From the NCBI GenBank assembly GCA_947626595.1, contig CANQST010000001.1, positions 1,076-65,075 of the forward strand: DNA of 64,000 bases. Direction: 5' to 3'. Made by a program: the position numbers and the translations under genes. Positions 37,531 through 57,900 of the stretch are shown piece by piece; within the stretch, counting starts at the first letter, position 1, and each line of letters starts with the position of its first letter. The notes beneath the pieces were generated by a model. It was given only the letters and a program-made list of their open reading frames with translations, was not told the DNA's origin and made no database searches. The DNA is from an uncultured Bacilli bacterium (GTDB lineage Bacteria; Bacillota_I; Bacilli_A; RF39; UBA660).

Positions 37531-38055
37531 ATGCAAGATAGAGAAAAGATAATAAGGCAAATAGAAAAATATCGAAATAATTCATGGTTTTATAATAGAG
37601 GAGAAATAGAAGATTTTGAAAGAAGAATTTTAGAATGTAGGAATAGTGAATATTGCTATTTCTTTGCAAGAGAAATTAGGGATGCTGATATAGAAAGTCA
37701 TGAAAAAGTAGTTTTAGAAGAAAAGATATTTAAGTATAATTATTTGTTTGCGAAAAATATAATAGGGGCAGATGTTTTAGCTCATGGAAAAGTAGTTATT
37801 GATACTTGTAATCCTAAGTTTAATTATATGTTTGCTCGTGATGTAAGAGGGGCTTTAGTTTTAGATCATGGCGATGTTGTTTTACAAAGTGGAGATCCTA
37901 AATATAATTATTTGTTTGCTAAGAATGTAGTTGGTGCTGATATAGAGAAACATATGGAAATACTTAAGAAAGATAAAAATATTGATTATGTTTATTTGCT
38001 TGATTTAGAAAAAAGTATGGAAAAAGCAAAACAATTAGTAAAAACTTACCAATAA
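37531..38055 (+). CDS. protein with 3-4 internal ~33-aa tandem repeats (YNYLFAKN.VGAD…HGKVV)
   Basis: Repeats visible in the translation: FKYNYLFAKNIIGADVLAHGKVV / PKFNYMFARDVRGALVLDHGDVV / PKYNYLFAKNVVGADIEKH. Confidence 0.5.
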   Translation: MQDREKIIRQIEKYRNNSWFYNRGEIEDFERRILECRNSEYCYFFAREIRDADIESHEKVVLEEKIFKYNYLFAKNIIGADVLAHGKVVIDTCNPKFNYMFARDVRGALVLDHGDVVLQSGDPKYNYLFAKNVVGADIEKHMEILKKDKNIDYVYLLDLEKSMEKAKQLVKTYQ

Positions 38056-43717: not shown

Positions 43718-43837
43718 TTGTGCTAAATGCACAATGAAAATGCTGCTAAACGCACAACAAAAACCGTGCTAATTGCACAACAGGTATTGCCATAATTCCT
43801 TTTTTTTTGTAAAATATACTTGAGGAGGCAGTATATT

Positions 43838-45121
43838 ATGGCTTTAACTAAGAAAAATTATCGTGAAAGATTAATTGATAGTGAGATAAGTGAATTACTT
43901 AAAATGTTTGGTGCAATAAGTATAGAAGGACCGAAATATTGTGGAAAGACTTGGACAGCTTCTAATCATGCTAATTCTTCAGTATTACTATCTAAATCTA
44001 GTAATCCTAATTCTGATTATCAGAAAGCTTTAATAAATCGAGAATTAATATATACTGATATTTTTCCACAGCTTATAGACGAATGGCAGTCTATTGCGGA
44101 AATTTGGGATGATGTTAGGACAAAGTGTGACGAAGATGGTAAAAAAGGTAAGTTTATATTGACTGGTTCTTCAGTTCCAGCTAGACCTGAAGATATTTTT
44201 CACTCAGGAGCTGGAAGAATTTATAAACTAAATATGTATACTATGTCTTTATATGAGTCTTTGGACTCTGAGGGTGTGGTATCACTTAGTGATTTATTTG
44301 AAAATAAAGATATTGCGGTTAATTTAAAAAATAAACCAACAATTGAAAAATTGGCGGATTTAATTATTCGTGGAGGTTGGCCTGCTAGTTTAGATTATGA
44401 GGCGAAAAACTATTATCGTCTACCAGAAAGTTATATTACTGATGTATTGGACCATGATATAAATTATGATAATGTTACACGTGATAAAGAAAAAATGTTA
44501 ATGTTACTTAGATCATTAGCGAGAAACGAGTCAACACTTGTTACTAATGAGAAACTTATAAATGATATTGAAGATTATACAACAGAAGAAAATTATCAAA
44601 TAAGTAGAAATACTTTGGCTGATTATTTAACTGTTTTAAAAAATATTCATTTAATACAAGACCAGTTACCCTTTTCTACTAAAATTCGTTCAAGTGTAAG
44701 AGTTGGTAAAAGTGCTAAAAGACATTTTTCTGATCCATCACTAGCTTGCTCTGTTTTGGGCTTAAGACAGGAACAATTAATAAATGATTTAGAATTGTTT
44801 GGCTTTATGTTTGAAGCGTTAGTTGTTAGAGATTTAAGAATATATATTGAGCATTTGGGTGGACATATTTATCATTTCCATGATAATAATACTGGTGAAG
44901 AGGTTGATGCTATTGTTGAACTAAGAGATGGAACTTATGGCGCTATTGAAATTAAATTGGGCGTAGGTAAGATAGAAGAAGCTGCTAATAACTTGCTAAA
45001 ATTTTCAAAAAGTTGTGAAGTACCTCCTAAATTTTTATGCGTAATAAGTGGTATGATAGATTATGCTTATAAAAGAAAAGATGGAATTTATGTTGTTCCT
45101 ATAACTGCTTTAAAACCATAA
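43838..45121 (+). CDS. AAA+ ATPase with C-terminal DUF4143-type domain
   Basis: RBS gaggagg. Walker A GPKYCGKT, Walker B-like FILTGSS. Archaeal-ATPase-like architecture. Confidence 0.7.
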   Translation: MALTKKNYRERLIDSEISELLKMFGAISIEGPKYCGKTWTASNHANSSVLLSKSSNPNSDYQKALINRELIYTDIFPQLIDEWQSIAEIWDDVRTKCDEDGKKGKFILTGSSVPARPEDIFHSGAGRIYKLNMYTMSLYESLDSEGVVSLSDLFENKDIAVNLKNKPTIEKLADLIIRGGWPASLDYEAKNYYRLPESYITDVLDHDINYDNVTRDKEKMLMLLRSLARNESTLVTNEKLINDIEDYTTEENYQISRNTLADYLTVLKNIHLIQDQLPFSTKIRSSVRVGKSAKRHFSDPSLACSVLGLRQEQLINDLELFGFMFEALVVRDLRIYIEHLGGHIYHFHDNNTGEEVDAIVELRDGTYGAIEIKLGVGKIEEAANNLLKFSKSCEVPPKFLCVISGMIDYAYKRKDGIYVVPITALKP

Positions 45122-52343: not shown

Positions 52344-53540
52344 ATGAAACGTATACTTATGAATAAAAATGTAGAAGTTTTGGTTGTTGAATATGATACG
52401 GCAACAGGAGTTTTTAATAGTATATATGAAGTTAAAAATATTGATTATGCACCATATATTTTAAAAAGTTTTTATAAAGAAAATGATATTAATGACACTT
52501 TCTTTAGAAGTAGTTTGAGTGAATGGTTTAAAGATAGAGGTATTCCTTCATGGCGTGATAAGTTAGATTTATTATTACATAGATTAAATATAACAGCGCC
52601 TTATGAACTTTTAGATAAGGCATTTGGATTATCTTTATCAGATCAGTATTGGCTAAAGCCTTTTGATAGTGATATTAAATATAATGATATTAACTTTTTT
52701 GATAATGACTTTGATTACGCTGAATTTATGGAGGCTTCATTATCAACTAATAGTAAAATAATAACTAAAGAGGCATCTTTGAAAACACCTAATAATACTA
52801 CAGATGGAATGCTTCAAAAAGCTTGGATTATTGATAATGGGGTAAGATACTTATTAAAGGGTGGATACAAAAATGAAACTTTACAACCATTTAATGAAGT
52901 ATTAGCTAGTGAGATATGTGAAAGATTAGGATTTAATCATGTAAAATATACAATAGATACATATAAAGATAAAGTTGTTTCTAAGTGTCCATGTTTTATA
53001 ACAAAAGATACGGAGTTAGTTACATGCTACCAAATAAAAAATGATATGAACAGGCATGATAGTGTAGAAGATTATAATGAATATATTAGGAAATTAGAAG
53101 ATAATGGAATAGAAAGTGCTAGAGAAAAAGTAGAAAATATGTATATTCTAGATTTCCTTATCATGAATGAAGATAGGCATTTAAACAATTTTGGAATTAT
53201 AAGGGATGTTAATACTTTAAAATGGTTAGATGTTGCGCCTATATTTGATAATGGACAAAGTTTAAATATTGAGTATTATGACGAAGAGGAATTACATATT
53301 TCTGGAGAAGGAAGATTGTTTTATGAGATAAAGCCTTTTGACGAAATAATAAAGGTAGTTAAGAATTTAAAAAGAATTGATATAGAAGAATTAGATGGTA
53401 TAGTAGAGTGGTTTGATAATTTATTACATAAATATCAGCATTTAACTCATTATTCTGATATGAGAATTAATAGATTATGTACTTTACTTAATAGACAGAT
53501 TAACAAGTTAAAGGAATTAATAGAAAAAGAAAACACTTAA
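52344..53540 (+). CDS. HipA-like Ser/Thr kinase domain protein (orphan, no HipB partner)
   Basis: ILDFLIMNEDRHLNNFGII matches the HipA catalytic loop (…GNxDxHxKNfS…). APIFDNG matches HipA (L)APAYD. Confidence 0.6.
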   Translation: MKRILMNKNVEVLVVEYDTATGVFNSIYEVKNIDYAPYILKSFYKENDINDTFFRSSLSEWFKDRGIPSWRDKLDLLLHRLNITAPYELLDKAFGLSLSDQYWLKPFDSDIKYNDINFFDNDFDYAEFMEASLSTNSKIITKEASLKTPNNTTDGMLQKAWIIDNGVRYLLKGGYKNETLQPFNEVLASEICERLGFNHVKYTIDTYKDKVVSKCPCFITKDTELVTCYQIKNDMNRHDSVEDYNEYIRKLEDNGIESAREKVENMYILDFLIMNEDRHLNNFGIIRDVNTLKWLDVAPIFDNGQSLNIEYYDEEELHISGEGRLFYEIKPFDEIIKVVKNLKRIDIEELDGIVEWFDNLLHKYQHLTHYSDMRINRLCTLLNRQINKLKELIEKENT

Positions 53541-53623
53541 TCATGGCAAATGGTTAAGTGTTTTAACAAAGAAATTTATCATAAAATATTGAATTGTTAT
53601 AGTACAATCACTTAGTGATGACT

Positions 53624-53707
53624 ATGAGTAAAAAAGATTTTTTAATACTTTCTCAAGTACTAATAATAATTTTATTTATAGTACTATTATTATTAAACAC
53701 TATATAA
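53624..53707 (+). CDS. 27-aa hydrophobic peptide, type I toxin-like (copy 1)
   Basis: MSKKDFLILSQVLIIILFIVLLLLNTI has a charged head plus a single TM. Followed by hairpin terminators. Weak SD. Confidence 0.4.
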   Translation: MSKKDFLILSQVLIIILFIVLLLLNTI

Positions 53708-53888
53708 TTACATAGCAAAAAATAAAACAATAGCGCTCAATCAAGTAGGTTGAGTACTCTTTCAATTTCTTTGGAGGAAGTACTCACTGCTAACAAGTAT
53801 CTTCCTTTTTTATTTTATGCAAATTTCTTTGACATATTAAATATAACATATTTCAAATAAAAATGCAACAAATTTTTTACAAAAAGTG

Positions 53889-53917
53889 TTGCATAAAATA
53901 TACATCTGTTATATAAT
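53889..53917 (+). promoter_or_regulatory. sigma-A promoter TTGCAT-17-TATAAT for copy 2 of the small-peptide gene
   Basis: ttgcataaaatatacatctgttatataat. Confidence 0.55.
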
Positions 53918-53945
53918 GTAAATGGAAGATATTTGTGAGAGTGCG

Positions 53946-53963
53946 ACCTCCTAAAAAGGAGGT
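53946..53963 (+). promoter_or_regulatory. 5'-UTR hairpin sequestering the Shine-Dalgarno (acctcc-taaaaa-ggaggt)
   Basis: A perfect 6-bp stem whose 3' arm is the SD aggagg 8 nt upstream of the ATG at 53971. This is a hallmark of type I toxin mRNAs. Confidence 0.5.
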
Positions 53964-53970
53964 GGTTACT

Positions 53971-54054
53971 ATGAGTAAAAAAGATTTTTTAATACTTTTT
54001 CAAGTACTAATAATAATTTTACTTATAGTACTATTACTATTAGACGCTATATAA
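53971..54054 (+). CDS. 27-aa hydrophobic peptide, type I toxin-like (copy 2)
   Basis: MSKKDFLILFQVLIIILLIVLLLLDAI. Strong SD aaggaggtgg. Followed by a perfect 11-bp-stem hairpin and a second terminator. Confidence 0.45.
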   Translation: MSKKDFLILFQVLIIILLIVLLLLDAI

Positions 54055-54405
54055 TTACGTAGAAAAAATAAAATAATAATAGCACTCAATCAAATGGATT
54101 GAGTGCTTTAACCAATACTGGAGGAAGTACTCGATACCAAACAAGTATCTTCCTTTTTTTATTTTATGCAAATTTCTTTGACATATTAAATATAACATAT
54201 TTTTAATAAAAACGCAACAAATTTTCCACTTAATTTATACTGGCTCTCCAGCCAGTAGTTCCTAACTAAGTATTAATTGTATAATTTAATCAGAGTAAGC
54301 TAGCATCTAGCTAGCTTACATTTCTCCTCTTAGTAGCAGCATTGTAATACTATCTTAGTATTAAATCAAATTATATGTAGATAATAATTGTAGGTGATGG
54401 TCTTC

Positions 54406-54453
54406 ATGAATAAGTTAAAAAATAGGCGCAATATATATATATATATATTATAG
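54406..54453 (+). other. orphaned translation-initiation region and signal-peptide N-region (MNKLKNRRNIYIYIL*) of the downstream FGE-domain gene, out of frame
   Basis: SD aggtga 8 nt upstream of ATG 54406. The 15-codon frame ends at TAG 54451-54453. The downstream ORF's frame is open back to 54426 (…YIYIYIIAVGIVIGFGSLVYAVGSVIESKSV…) and is +2 relative to this ATG. Confidence 0.6.
54431..54448 (+). repeat. (AT)9 dinucleotide simple-sequence repeat inside the 5' coding region
   Basis: atatatatatatatatat. Loss of one AT unit (or gain of two) fuses ATG 54406 to the FGE-domain ORF. Confidence 0.85.
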
Positions 54454-54524
54454 CTGTTGGAATAGTAATAGGGTTTGGTAGTTTAGTCTACGCAGTAGGT
54501 TCAGTAATAGAAAGTAAGTCAGTT

Positions 54525-55892
54525 TTGTATAATAGAACTATAAGTGGTGGAAGTTCAGATAATGTACAGGGTTCAATAGACGAATTATATAAAATGAGTG
54601 GAGTAAGTACTACTCAATATAAGGAAGAAATTTTAAACGGAGCAGACCCAGTATTGGGTGAAGGAATGATACCAGTAACTTTAGATGGTGATGGGACAGT
54701 AAAGTACGCTAATTTAAATACACCTTGGTATAAATATGAAGAAAAGAAATGGGCAAATGCAGTAATACTTAAGAGTAATCCAAGTAAAAGTTATAAAACA
54801 GGGGATATAATCTCAGAAAACGATATTGAGAGTTATTTTGTGTGGGTTCCAAGATTTAAATACAAAATATGGAACTTAACAAGTGAAGATGGGTATCAAG
54901 ATACATTTACTAATACTGCTAATGATGCTAATTCTATAAGACAACTTACTGGAAAAGCAAGATTAATAGACATAATATTTGAAGATAAAGATGCACAACC
55001 ATCAACTACAATAGCATTAAATTTATATTATACCCATCCAGCGTTTACTGCTTTTAGAGTAAATGGTTTATGGATAGCTAAATTTGAAGCTAGTGGTACA
55101 ACAAGTGCCATAACAGTAAAACCAAATATGACTTCTTTAAGAAGTACCACAGTTGGTTCTTTTTGGCATGCATTTTATGATTATAAAAATACTAGTGGAA
55201 ATCATAATACTAATTTAGATCCACACATGATAAAGAACACTGAATGGGGAGCAGTCGCCTATCTTTCTCATTCAGTATATGGAATAGGTAAAGAAGTAAA
55301 TGTAAATAATAATTTAAGTTTTAAAACAGGTTATTCGGCGGCATCAAATACTGACCAAAGTTCATATTCTGGAACTACCGGAACTAAAGAAATTACTGAT
55401 GATGATGGACCAGCAGTAACACAACCATATAATACATCAACTGGCTATCTTGCTTCAACAACAGGAAATATCACAGGAATATATGATATGAGTGGTGGTG
55501 CTTGGGAATTTGTAGCAGGTTATCTTGACCCTTATGGACTTAGTAATAATAGTGGGGTAGCAAGTGGCTTAACGGCTACTGATTTAGCTAAAGCACAGTA
55601 CTTTGACCAATATTCTGGTGCTTTAACATGGTCTTCTTACAGTAAGAGAATTGTTGGAGACGCCACTGGAGAGTTAGGTCCTTTCTACTATTATAAAGAT
55701 AAAGATAATTCTAGTCGCACTCATAATGGATGGTATGCTGACAGCTCTAATTTTATTGAACCTATCAATACTTGGTTTGTTAGAGGTGGTTATTGTGCTG
55801 ATGGAGTACTAGCTGGTCAGTTTAATTTTGATAGGTATACTGGAGGCATGAATGTCAATCGTGGTTCTAGGTTTGTTCTTGCAGTAAAGTAA
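54525..55892 (+). CDS. secreted FGE-sulfatase/SUMF1-domain protein (paralog A), currently separated from its start and signal peptide by a frameshift
   Basis: FGE-domain motifs: HPAFTAFRVNGLWIAKFEAS, MIKNTEWGAVAYL (≈LPTEAEWEYAA), GIYDMSGGAWEFV (≈GLYDMAGNVWEW), VRGGYC (≈RGGSW), NRGSRFVLA (≈GFR). The TTG at 54525 is only the first in-frame start codon in the ORF track. Confidence 0.65.
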   Translation: MYNRTISGGSSDNVQGSIDELYKMSGVSTTQYKEEILNGADPVLGEGMIPVTLDGDGTVKYANLNTPWYKYEEKKWANAVILKSNPSKSYKTGDIISENDIESYFVWVPRFKYKIWNLTSEDGYQDTFTNTANDANSIRQLTGKARLIDIIFEDKDAQPSTTIALNLYYTHPAFTAFRVNGLWIAKFEASGTTSAITVKPNMTSLRSTTVGSFWHAFYDYKNTSGNHNTNLDPHMIKNTEWGAVAYLSHSVYGIGKEVNVNNNLSFKTGYSAASNTDQSSYSGTTGTKEITDDDGPAVTQPYNTSTGYLASTTGNITGIYDMSGGAWEFVAGYLDPYGLSNNSGVASGLTATDLAKAQYFDQYSGALTWSSYSKRIVGDATGELGPFYYYKDKDNSSRTHNGWYADSSNFIEPINTWFVRGGYCADGVLAGQFNFDRYTGGMNVNRGSRFVLAVK

Positions 55893-55917
55893 AAGGAAAA
55901 AGGATGTGATTTATATT

Positions 55918-57900
55918 ATGAATAATAGAAAACAAAAATATATAATAATTGGAGCTTTATGTTTAGTTGTAACTCTACTGTCTATAGGTTATGCTGTATT
56001 GTCTGCTACCTTAAGAATTAATGGAACAGCAAAAGTATCAGGTGAAAAATGGAGTGTTGAGTTTGTAGAAAAGCAAGCGAGGACAATACCAAAAGGTAAA
56101 GCTGCTTGTGATATTGGTACTATCGCTAATACTTCAGTAACAAACCTATTAGCTAAAGTAAAGGTACCAGGAGATAGTTGTACATTTACTATACCAGTAG
56201 AAAATACTGGAACATTGGATGCAAGTTTAGTTGATGTTACTAATAAAGCTTTGTCTTTGTCATATGATGGAAATCAAGAGGATATTGATATCATAAGTAG
56301 TTATATAACTTATGATGTTAGATATGGTAACACACAAGTAAATAATGAAACTAATTTTGATAGCATTGATATCTTAGAGCCAGGTGAAAGAGAAACTATA
56401 ACTTTAAAAGTAGAATTTAAAGAAGAAGCAACACAAATACCAAATGCAGTTGTAACAGTAACAGGATTAGATAGAACTTTTAATTTTGAAAATAAGGTTG
56501 GTTCAAGTACTACTAGTCCAACACCTAACACAACTCCAGTGTTCAATGATACAAGTGGAGCTAATCAACCTGTGCTTAGTGACAATATGATACCTGTAGT
56601 ATATGACGAAACAAGAAAAGAATGGGTAAAACAAAATTTAGATAAAAGTTATGATTATTCACAACAAGTATGGGCTAATGCTGTAACTGTAGTTGAAGAT
56701 GGAACCCAAACAAGAAGTTATTATAAGAAAGCCAAAGCTGGAACTGTTATATCAATGGAAGATATAAACACAATGTGGGTATGGATACCAAGATATAGTT
56801 ATACTATTAAGAGTGAAGATGGGGAGAACTATTATGGTAAAGCAAGTTCAGATAATCAAAGTCCAACACAAGAATTACCTGGAGAAATAGATGTTAAGTT
56901 TATACCCATAAGTGAAAATGATAGTGATGGTAGTGCTCAATACACAGAAGAAGAACCAACTGGATGGTTTACCCCACCAGGGTTTAAATTTGGAGATAAA
57001 GATTTATCAGGGGTTTGGGTAGGAAAGTTTGAGACAGGTTCAATTGATGGAACAGATCATGGAGATGTAGAAACAGATAACTTAGTGGCAATTAAGCCTA
57101 ATATAACATCTTGGAGAAATATTAGAGTATCAACCTTAGAATTAGTTTCCATGGGATTAACTAAAACTGGAAATGTTTATGGTTTTGATAATACCTATGA
57201 TAGTCATGCAATTAAGAATACCGAATGGGCACTTATGGTATACTTAACTCAAAGTAAATATGGTAAATATGGAAATGCATTATATACAGGATCTAGTAAA
57301 GAAGTTTACATTAACAATTACAATAAGTATGTTACTGGCTGTTCGGGTGGAGCCGGTGCTGCAGATATTTCTTCAGAATGTTCTTATCATTATGATAATT
57401 TAACGACAAAAGGACAAGGGACTGGATATGCTGGAGCTGGTGCTTCAACAACTGGAAATGTTTATGGAATATATGATACTAATGGTGGCGCTTGGGAGTA
57501 TGTAATGGGAAGTTATTCAGCTGGAGGACAAAAATATTCTGGAACAGCAGTGTCAAACAATTCTGGATATGTAGGTAAAATTAATAGTGGAACTGCCGAT
57601 TTTAGTGAAAATGCTAGAGAATGGCAAGCTGATAAATATTATGACTTTTATACCAGCGGAGATACATTAACAGCATGTAATGGTAACCCATGTAAAGGTC
57701 ATGCTTTAAATGAGTTTTCACAATGGTATAATGATGGAATGTTTTTTATATTGAGTTCTTACCCATGGCTATATAGAGGTCATGATTATGGCTATAATGC
57801 AACAAGTGGAATTTTTGGATTTTCACGTAGTGGTGGTCATGCGTATGGTGGTGCAAGAGGAAATGATAGTTTCCGTATAGTCCTAACCCCTAACAATTAA
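55918..57900 (+). CDS. secreted protein with SipW-cognate signal, TasA/camelysin-like N-domain and C-terminal FGE-sulfatase/SUMF1 domain (paralog B)
   Basis: MNNRKQKYIIIGALCLVVTLLSIGYAVLSATL signal. Residues ~30-210 parallel the 172-aa TasA-like protein (PGDSCTFTIPVENTGTLDASL vs PGDTITYRVTIENLGTINAKL). The C-terminal half is collinear with paralog A (IKNTEWALMVYL, GIYDTNGGAWEYV, GFSRSGG…SFRIVLTP). Confidence 0.75.
   Translation: MNNRKQKYIIIGALCLVVTLLSIGYAVLSATLRINGTAKVSGEKWSVEFVEKQARTIPKGKAACDIGTIANTSVTNLLAKVKVPGDSCTFTIPVENTGTLDASLVDVTNKALSLSYDGNQEDIDIISSYITYDVRYGNTQVNNETNFDSIDILEPGERETITLKVEFKEEATQIPNAVVTVTGLDRTFNFENKVGSSTTSPTPNTTPVFNDTSGANQPVLSDNMIPVVYDETRKEWVKQNLDKSYDYSQQVWANAVTVVEDGTQTRSYYKKAKAGTVISMEDINTMWVWIPRYSYTIKSEDGENYYGKASSDNQSPTQELPGEIDVKFIPISENDSDGSAQYTEEEPTGWFTPPGFKFGDKDLSGVWVGKFETGSIDGTDHGDVETDNLVAIKPNITSWRNIRVSTLELVSMGLTKTGNVYGFDNTYDSHAIKNTEWALMVYLTQSKYGKYGNALYTGSSKEVYINNYNKYVTGCSGGAGAADISSECSYHYDNLTTKGQGTGYAGAGASTTGNVYGIYDTNGGAWEYVMGSYSAGGQKYSGTAVSNNSGYVGKINSGTADFSENAREWQADKYYDFYTSGDTLTACNGNPCKGHALNEFSQWYNDGMFFILSSYPWLYRGHDYGYNATSGIFGFSRSGGHAYGGARGNDSFRIVLTPNN

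Follow-up and report, generated by a model that had tools for sequence, protein, structure and literature searches.

An AT dinucleotide repeat as a candidate switch in the signal-peptide codons of a C-type-lectin-fold protein gene from an uncultured gut Bacilli bacterium

The window analysed here is the whole of a 64,000 nucleotide stretch of DNA from an uncultured Bacilli bacterium. Within it, a ribosome-binding site, a start codon and the beginning of a signal peptide are set apart from a long open reading frame by nine AT dinucleotides, and the two frames are out of register. Is this a gene that can be switched on and off, a gene that has been lost, or an error of assembly? The repeat is the sole dinucleotide run of at least 5 units in these 64 kb of 27.2% GC DNA, where a first-order Markov model gives an expectation of 0.0003 tracts of (AT)9 or longer. 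The tract is real and non-random.

The AT tract and its reading frames

Read directly from the sequence, the Shine-Dalgarno element AGGTGA (54392-54397, + strand) is followed after an 8-nt spacer by an ATG at 54406-54408; the same aataattgtaggtga element lies ahead of the intact paralogue P0011 (L002). The frame from this ATG, MNKLKNRRNIYIYIL, runs for 15 codons and is closed by a TAG at 54451-54453. This is the present, OFF, state of the leader (54406-54453, + strand). In the ON state its first 14 codons would encode the n-region of a signal peptide and the first part of its h-region, and a leader identical to it opens the 513-aa protein P0011. The perfect (AT)9 occupies 54431-54448, 8 codons past the ATG, and is reported by TRF as an array carried on imperfectly as far as 54452. 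Taken with its flanks, the tract is A(AT)9TATA, 23 nt in length (54430-54452), bounded by GCGC and GCT. It is a simple sequence repeat to which no strand is assigned, and a candidate slippage switch.

The long frame is open from 54426, directly after a TAG at 54423-54425, to a TAA at 55890-55892. Its translation starts IAVGIVIGFGSLVYAVGSVI and contains IAVGIVIGFGSLVYAVGSVIESK. There is no ATG, GTG or TTG in this frame ahead of the TTG at 54525, so an internal start would give a product without the signal peptide. The gene body (54453-55892, + strand) has 479 codons and a stop, is out of frame with the ATG at 54406, and is predicted to complete the signal peptide (AVGIVIGFGSLVYA|VGS), which is followed by a linker and then by a globular domain of FGE/C-type-lectin fold. 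With the tract at its present length translation ends after 15 codons, and because the frames are out of register the body would not be exported. Loss of 2 nt (one AT unit) or gain of 4 nt (two units) joins the frames into a single precursor. An earlier note, made from the letters of this DNA, had described the start site, the TAG after the alternating tract, the downstream frame that carries on the hydrophobic signal core, and the repair by one unit less or two more. Direct reading and the joining of the frames by computation agree with it on each of these points and differ on the length of the precursor, which is 494 aa rather than the 485 given. Pure AT repeats hold only Ile and Tyr codons and no stop in any frame, so that in-frame length variants would be tolerated in the hydrophobic core.

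The signals upstream of the leader are modest. A TATAAT at 54280-54285 (+ strand), with TG immediately 5' and no good -35, may be a -10 hexamer; a consensus promoter scan of the + strand from 54226 to 54405 returned nothing significant and nothing better than shuffled sequence. A 10-bp GC-containing hairpin, GTAAGCTAGC-ATCTA-GCTAGCTTAC (54295-54319, + strand), was picked up as a terminator-like site, and would either terminate the small-ORF region that lies upstream or form a stem-loop in the 5' UTR of the AT-tract gene. The only Rfam match in the window is one tRNA, with none near this locus.

Further upstream, 53569-54225 holds a tandem duplication of about 348 bp with 87-96% identity (units at about 53615-53876 and 53962-54225), directly 3' of a HipA_C-like kinase gene (52344-53540). 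Each unit has a hairpin and a small ORF whose product is hydrophobic and about 30 aa long, MSKKDFLILSQVLIIILFIVLLLLNTI (53615-53707 and 53935-54054); these may be small membrane toxin-like peptides. Elsewhere in the window there is an 84-nt tandem repeat of 2.4 copies and 71% matches at 37731-37929, within the ORF at 37531-38055, and an intergenic 23-nt tandem repeat of 2.7 copies at 43721-43782, ahead of the ORF at 43820-45121.

Next to the AT-tract gene, on its downstream side, lies a divergent, B-type paralogue with no repeat tract. It is 664 aa long if read from the GTG at 55906; the ATG at 55918 is the likelier start (55918-57900, + strand). The two proteins are 30% identical over about 470 aa and their genes are probably co-transcribed. 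The A-B pairing of paralogues recurs in L002.

The encoded protein and its family

The repaired protein matched 0 families in Pfam and NCBIfam. Its own family is unannotated and very large, with more than 6,000 matches, most of them Firmicutes/Bacilli MAG proteins. Weak matches to PF03781 (FGE-sulfatase) were present in 27 of 71 aligned relatives, with a best E value of 2e-6. A confident AlphaFold model built from the family alignment (pLDDT 88, pTM 0.85) has an N-terminal helix (residues 5-22) that a linker, modelled with low confidence, joins to a globular body, and on this model the protein tests as a member of the FGE/C-type-lectin-like fold class. The 'FGE-domain' of the earlier note is sound only at the level of the fold and finds no Pfam match in the repaired protein; it is better read as an FGE/C-type-lectin fold, closest to the variable proteins of DGRs. 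No column of the 71-member alignment has 30% or more Cys, so the catalytic Cys pair of FGE is absent. With neither a Pfam match nor conserved Cys, an FGE enzyme function was rejected.

The N-termini of the family have a basic n-region, a hydrophobic core and an ending of the form SVYA|V, a pattern to which the repaired window protein conforms. A lipobox is absent, and VYA|V resembles a type I signal peptidase site. From the model and these features we infer that the repaired protein is a secreted or surface ligand-binding protein of the C-type-lectin/FGE fold.

Annotation of these genes has missed the leader. The protein P0001 (455 aa, called from the TTG at 54525) is the exact truncated window product and is found in both NCBI and ENA assemblies. 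It, P0004 and P0006 were all called from internal starts, the latter two being annotated short because their tracts are out of frame. A search with the N-terminal 135 aa alone matched four short fragments. With gene calls truncated and assemblies breaking at the tracts, such families will be systematically mis-annotated in MAG catalogues.

The likeness to DGR variable proteins can be followed into a relative. In a related MAG (L009), the last 146 nt of a family gene are repeated upstream. The two copies differ at 19 positions, and at 17 of these the upstream one has A where the gene has G, C or T. A second template-like copy is present, followed by MutS_I-domain, bAvd and reverse-transcriptase genes (RVT_1 8e-16, bAvd 1.5e-20), and the whole makes up a complete DGR (L009 142-287, 486-631, 2663-2808 and 2915-4711). 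The family gene there is preceded by a G9 promoter tract. The DGR of this relative indicates that the family is of the DGR-target type, which fits the match of the fold to TaqVP. An active DGR within the window was rejected; the 3' end of the window gene has no second copy and no template repeat there, and a motif scan of the window ORFs found no convincing reverse-transcriptase-like ORF.

The leader in paralogous genes and the alternatives to a switch

The leader ATGAATAAGTTAAAAAATAGGC(G/A)CA-(AT)n is common to several loci, representing at least 5 paralogous genes. All of the leader loci come from ENA samples of one study series, in which the related contigs have 7-9x coverage. On account of this shared origin and similar coverage, they probably belong to one population or genome. 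The tract differs in length among them. P0011 (L002) has A(AT)8A, 18 nt, which is in frame and gives the intact protein beginning MNKLKNRRNIYIYIAVGIVIGFG. The others are out of frame: A(AT)9A, 20 nt, at the window's own locus in another assembly (L001) and at the P0004 locus in three samples (L013, L014 and L015); AA(AT)8A, 19 nt, at the P0006 locus (L016); and the 23 nt of the window. One paralogue is therefore ON and the others OFF, with leader and tract shared. The comparison of tract lengths in relatives that the earlier note had proposed gave variation between paralogues, at 18, 19, 20 and 23 nt, and no variation at the P0004 locus, where the three samples are identical and possibly clonally related. 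In every copy the tract is uninterrupted despite synonymous divergence, and its purity may be kept by selection, slippage or gene conversion. Strict and loose scans of JGI metagenomes for the leader found no copy.

The OFF copies are uninterrupted ORFs of 474-479 codons in DNA of 27-30% GC, in which about 8% of random codons would be stops, and dN/dS among the three OFF paralogues is 0.20-0.25 at a dS of 0.55-0.76. Intact frames and these ratios indicate that the OFF copies have evolved as coding genes, and they appear to be under purifying selection.

A comparison of the window with L001 places the differences in the leader. Over 7,371 bp there are six differing positions, all within 54367-54448: CA/TG at 54367-8, G/T at 54400 and a 3-nt tract indel. 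These 82 bp cover the 5' UTR, the spacer between Shine-Dalgarno and ATG, and the tract. The downstream ORF is 100% identical. The indel, TAT, does not correspond to whole AT units, and it leaves the window and L001 alike in the OFF state. By this comparison the 5' leader is changing far faster than its surroundings, and the clustering suggests gene conversion or hypermutation of the leader, not only slippage by units.

The contigs L013-L016, four from three samples, have a common first base (position 1), which lies 33 nt 5' of the leader ATG, and they are alike over their first 55 nt, as might arise where a de Bruijn graph branches at a 5' cassette common to several paralogues. The leader is a repeat among paralogues and some assemblies break there, so some tract-to-locus assignments could be chimeric. 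A contig break in L021 about 20 nt past the tract was considered as a sign of heterogeneity and set aside, being explained instead by the paralogous leader repeat. At the contig end L002 1-170, a leader of (AT)9 or longer precedes what is left of an A-type gene, degenerate and shortened by internal deletion (...NHNTNLNPKVI...), and this remnant lies upstream of a B-type paralogue. From this remnant it follows that family members also decay or recombine.

A second type of repeat is associated with other members of the family. In the same population, paralogues with a MKRIVKKSKIDRK leader lie behind TTGACA-taacccta-G10 or G11-TATACT, with the G tract in the -35/-10 spacer (G10 at L017 11543-11552; G11 at L019 5949-5959), and a further contig ends inside its poly-G tract (L018 3317-3327). 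A G12 (L013 1564-1575) stands in TTGACA-taaccata-G12-TATAAT ahead of a neighbouring Gp10_C-domain gene, and two contigs break at that G tract (the ends of L014 and L015). Four other uncultured rabbit-gut Bacilli MAG species have, at five loci, G9-G10 between -35-like and -10-like hexamers, 20-50 nt 5' of family genes or operons (L004 3916-3924, L005 5527-5536, L009 856-864, L010 5529-5538 and L011 334-343). At 25-30% GC, a chance origin of G9-G12 runs is essentially impossible. Transcriptional phase variation classically has a homopolymer at this place, in the spacer of the promoter, and these tracts are, from their sequence and position, a second type of repeat switch in the same family. In the window, runs of G or C are all shorter than 7, and there is no promoter-spacer homopolymer of the Vlp/Opc type. 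Paralogues with a third type of leader, MKKY(I/V)IGFIIG, have no repeat tract (L017 7382-7735 and 9367-9726; L018 1141-1500), and an HTH_3 (Xre-type) regulator gene, transcribed divergently, lies ahead of each.

Of the explanations that these data allow, the most probable, at about 0.72, is that the tract is a slipped-strand ON/OFF switch in signal-peptide codons and one element in the combinatorial expression of a variable binding-protein family. The (AT)9 would then be a contingency locus, lying among the codons for the signal peptide of a binding protein that is secreted and has a C-type-lectin/FGE fold. Replication slippage would alter the tract by 2 nt at high frequency, and each cell would express a changing subset of surface or secreted binding proteins, a combinatorial phase variation. 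The payoff would probably be the evasion of host immunity or phage, or a changed binding specificity. Phase variation had been proposed in the earlier note, and the comparative predictions that could be checked came out in its favour, with tract-length variation seen between paralogues and not among the three samples of the P0004 locus. It is unlikely that the tract, real and mutation-prone as it is, lies instead in a fixed or recently inactivated copy, dead or dying and with no adaptive reversible switching. All recorded versions of the locus are indeed OFF (23 nt in the window, 20 nt in L001), a collection of 5.8 billion proteins holds no ON allele of the window gene, a decayed leader-plus-remnant exists at L002 1-170, and the P0004 locus is OFF in three samples. 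However, a 479-codon ORF that is intact in very AT-rich DNA and identical in two assemblies is hard to reconcile with inactivation, the dN/dS of the OFF paralogues is not expected of pseudogenes, and the tract is perfectly uninterrupted in every copy, each of which is restored by one unit change.

A sequencing or assembly artefact, in which an in-frame gene has been given a wrong tract length, extra TAT included, at a low-coverage (~8x) run in a paralogous repeat, is quite unlikely. The low coverage of the related ENA contigs, the leader common to paralogues at which some assemblies break, and the non-unit 3-nt indel between the window and L001 would all suit such an error, which the earlier note had named as its own alternative. 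Yet the identical out-of-frame (AT)9 at the P0004 locus occurs in three independent sample assemblies, the out-of-frame state is seen at four loci and in two different registers, with P0011 in frame in the same sample, and a single short read easily crosses a tract of 18 nt; independent evidence of repeat switches in the same organism comes from the poly-G promoter tracts. Programmed recoding, by which the present out-of-frame sequence would still give the full-length protein through a ribosomal frameshift, or through slippage of transcription, at the AT tract, is highly improbable. An A AAA AAT heptamer at 54417-54423 is in the correct register for a -1 shift, but the shifted frame meets the TAG at 54423-54425 at once, and for this reason -1 frameshifting there was rejected. 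A productive shift would need to fall within the AT repeat, where no slippery pattern is present, and transcriptional slippage is established for long homopolymers, not for AT dinucleotides. The fold of the leader RNA is no more stable than that of shuffled controls (z = 0.6), which also led to the rejection of an RNA-structure role for the self-complementary tract, and the intact paralogue P0011 needs no recoding. The slipped-strand switch remains the preferred reading.

Diversification of the family and known repeat switches

Repeat-driven phase variation is textbook knowledge for cultured pathogens, including Neisseria, Haemophilus, Campylobacter, Helicobacter and Mycoplasma. To our knowledge, it is hardly documented in uncultured gut commensals. 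Among Bacilli MAGs from the rabbit and human gut, one protein family combines AT-repeat switches in coding sequence with poly-G switches in promoters, and a relative adds a DGR. These three devices suggest strong and fluctuating selection on displayed or secreted proteins, for example from immunity, phage or changing ligands. It is tentatively proposed, as a possibility with a little less than even odds, that diversification in uncultured gut Bacilli is layered, with a large family of secreted DGR-type receptors of C-type-lectin fold varied by paralogue arrays, by stochastic on/off choice through (AT)n in signal-peptide codons and poly-G in promoter spacers, and by lineage-limited DGR mutagenesis. 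In some lineages the mutagenesis would strike the site at which these same proteins bind, in genes that follow a poly-G promoter. If this layered reading is true, these commensals carry a 'phasome' in the style of Mycoplasma or Helicobacter, coupled to DGR hypervariation.

The window protein, as modelled, shares its C-type-lectin fold with the DGR variable proteins TaqVP (5vf4), TvpA (2y3c) and Mtd (1yu0). It differs in the source of its diversity, which in the window would come from paralogue arrays and on/off switching and not from mutagenic retrohoming. From the formylglycine-generating enzyme/SUMF1 (PF03781) it is distinguished by having no Pfam match or Cys pair, by its predicted secretion and by its origin in a hypervariable paralogue family.

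At the level of the system, the closest analogues appear to be the Vlp, Vmm and Vmc families of Mycoplasma. The Vmm promoter repeat is a TA repeat, and Vmc of M. capricolum likewise has TA repeats in its promoter. In M. hyorhinis the variable surface proteins Vlp have a poly-A in the promoter spacer (PMC2628566, PMC11868660), and the Vmm promoter of M. mycoides contains a dinucleotide repeat (PMC2628566). As in those families, the members of one multigene family, encoding surface proteins of a low-GC organism of the Bacilli class, would each have a repeat switch of their own and so be open to combinatorial expression, with AT/TA dinucleotide and homopolymer tracts both in use, and the homopolymers of the sister genes lie exactly in the -35/-10 spacer. 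In contrast to Mycoplasma, the window tract is in a coding leader and would act as a translational switch rather than in a promoter. The family proteins are not lipoproteins, and the organism has cell-wall genes such as FtsW/RodA.

The enrichment of simple sequence repeats at N-termini is a recognised signature of phase variation (PMC3315296). For the mechanism, the closest analogue by comparison is the CT-repeat switch of H. pylori oipA, sabA and hopZ, in which CT dinucleotide repeats lie in the signal-peptide coding region (PMC10564699). In both cases a dinucleotide repeat is found a few codons past the start, within the signal-peptide codons of a surface protein, gain or loss of units would toggle between a full-length exported protein and a short peptide, and several paralogues share the device. 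Literature searches found no described coding (AT)n switch, which is weak evidence of absence. The repeat unit is AT here, giving Ile-Tyr codons, and CT in H. pylori; the host is a gut commensal of the low-GC Gram-positive lineage (Bacilli), known from MAGs only; and the cargo is a protein of C-type-lectin/FGE fold whereas that of H. pylori is an outer-membrane beta-barrel, with the switching here read from sequence. The mechanism is one that is already known, and what is new is a member of it in a little-studied organism and protein family.
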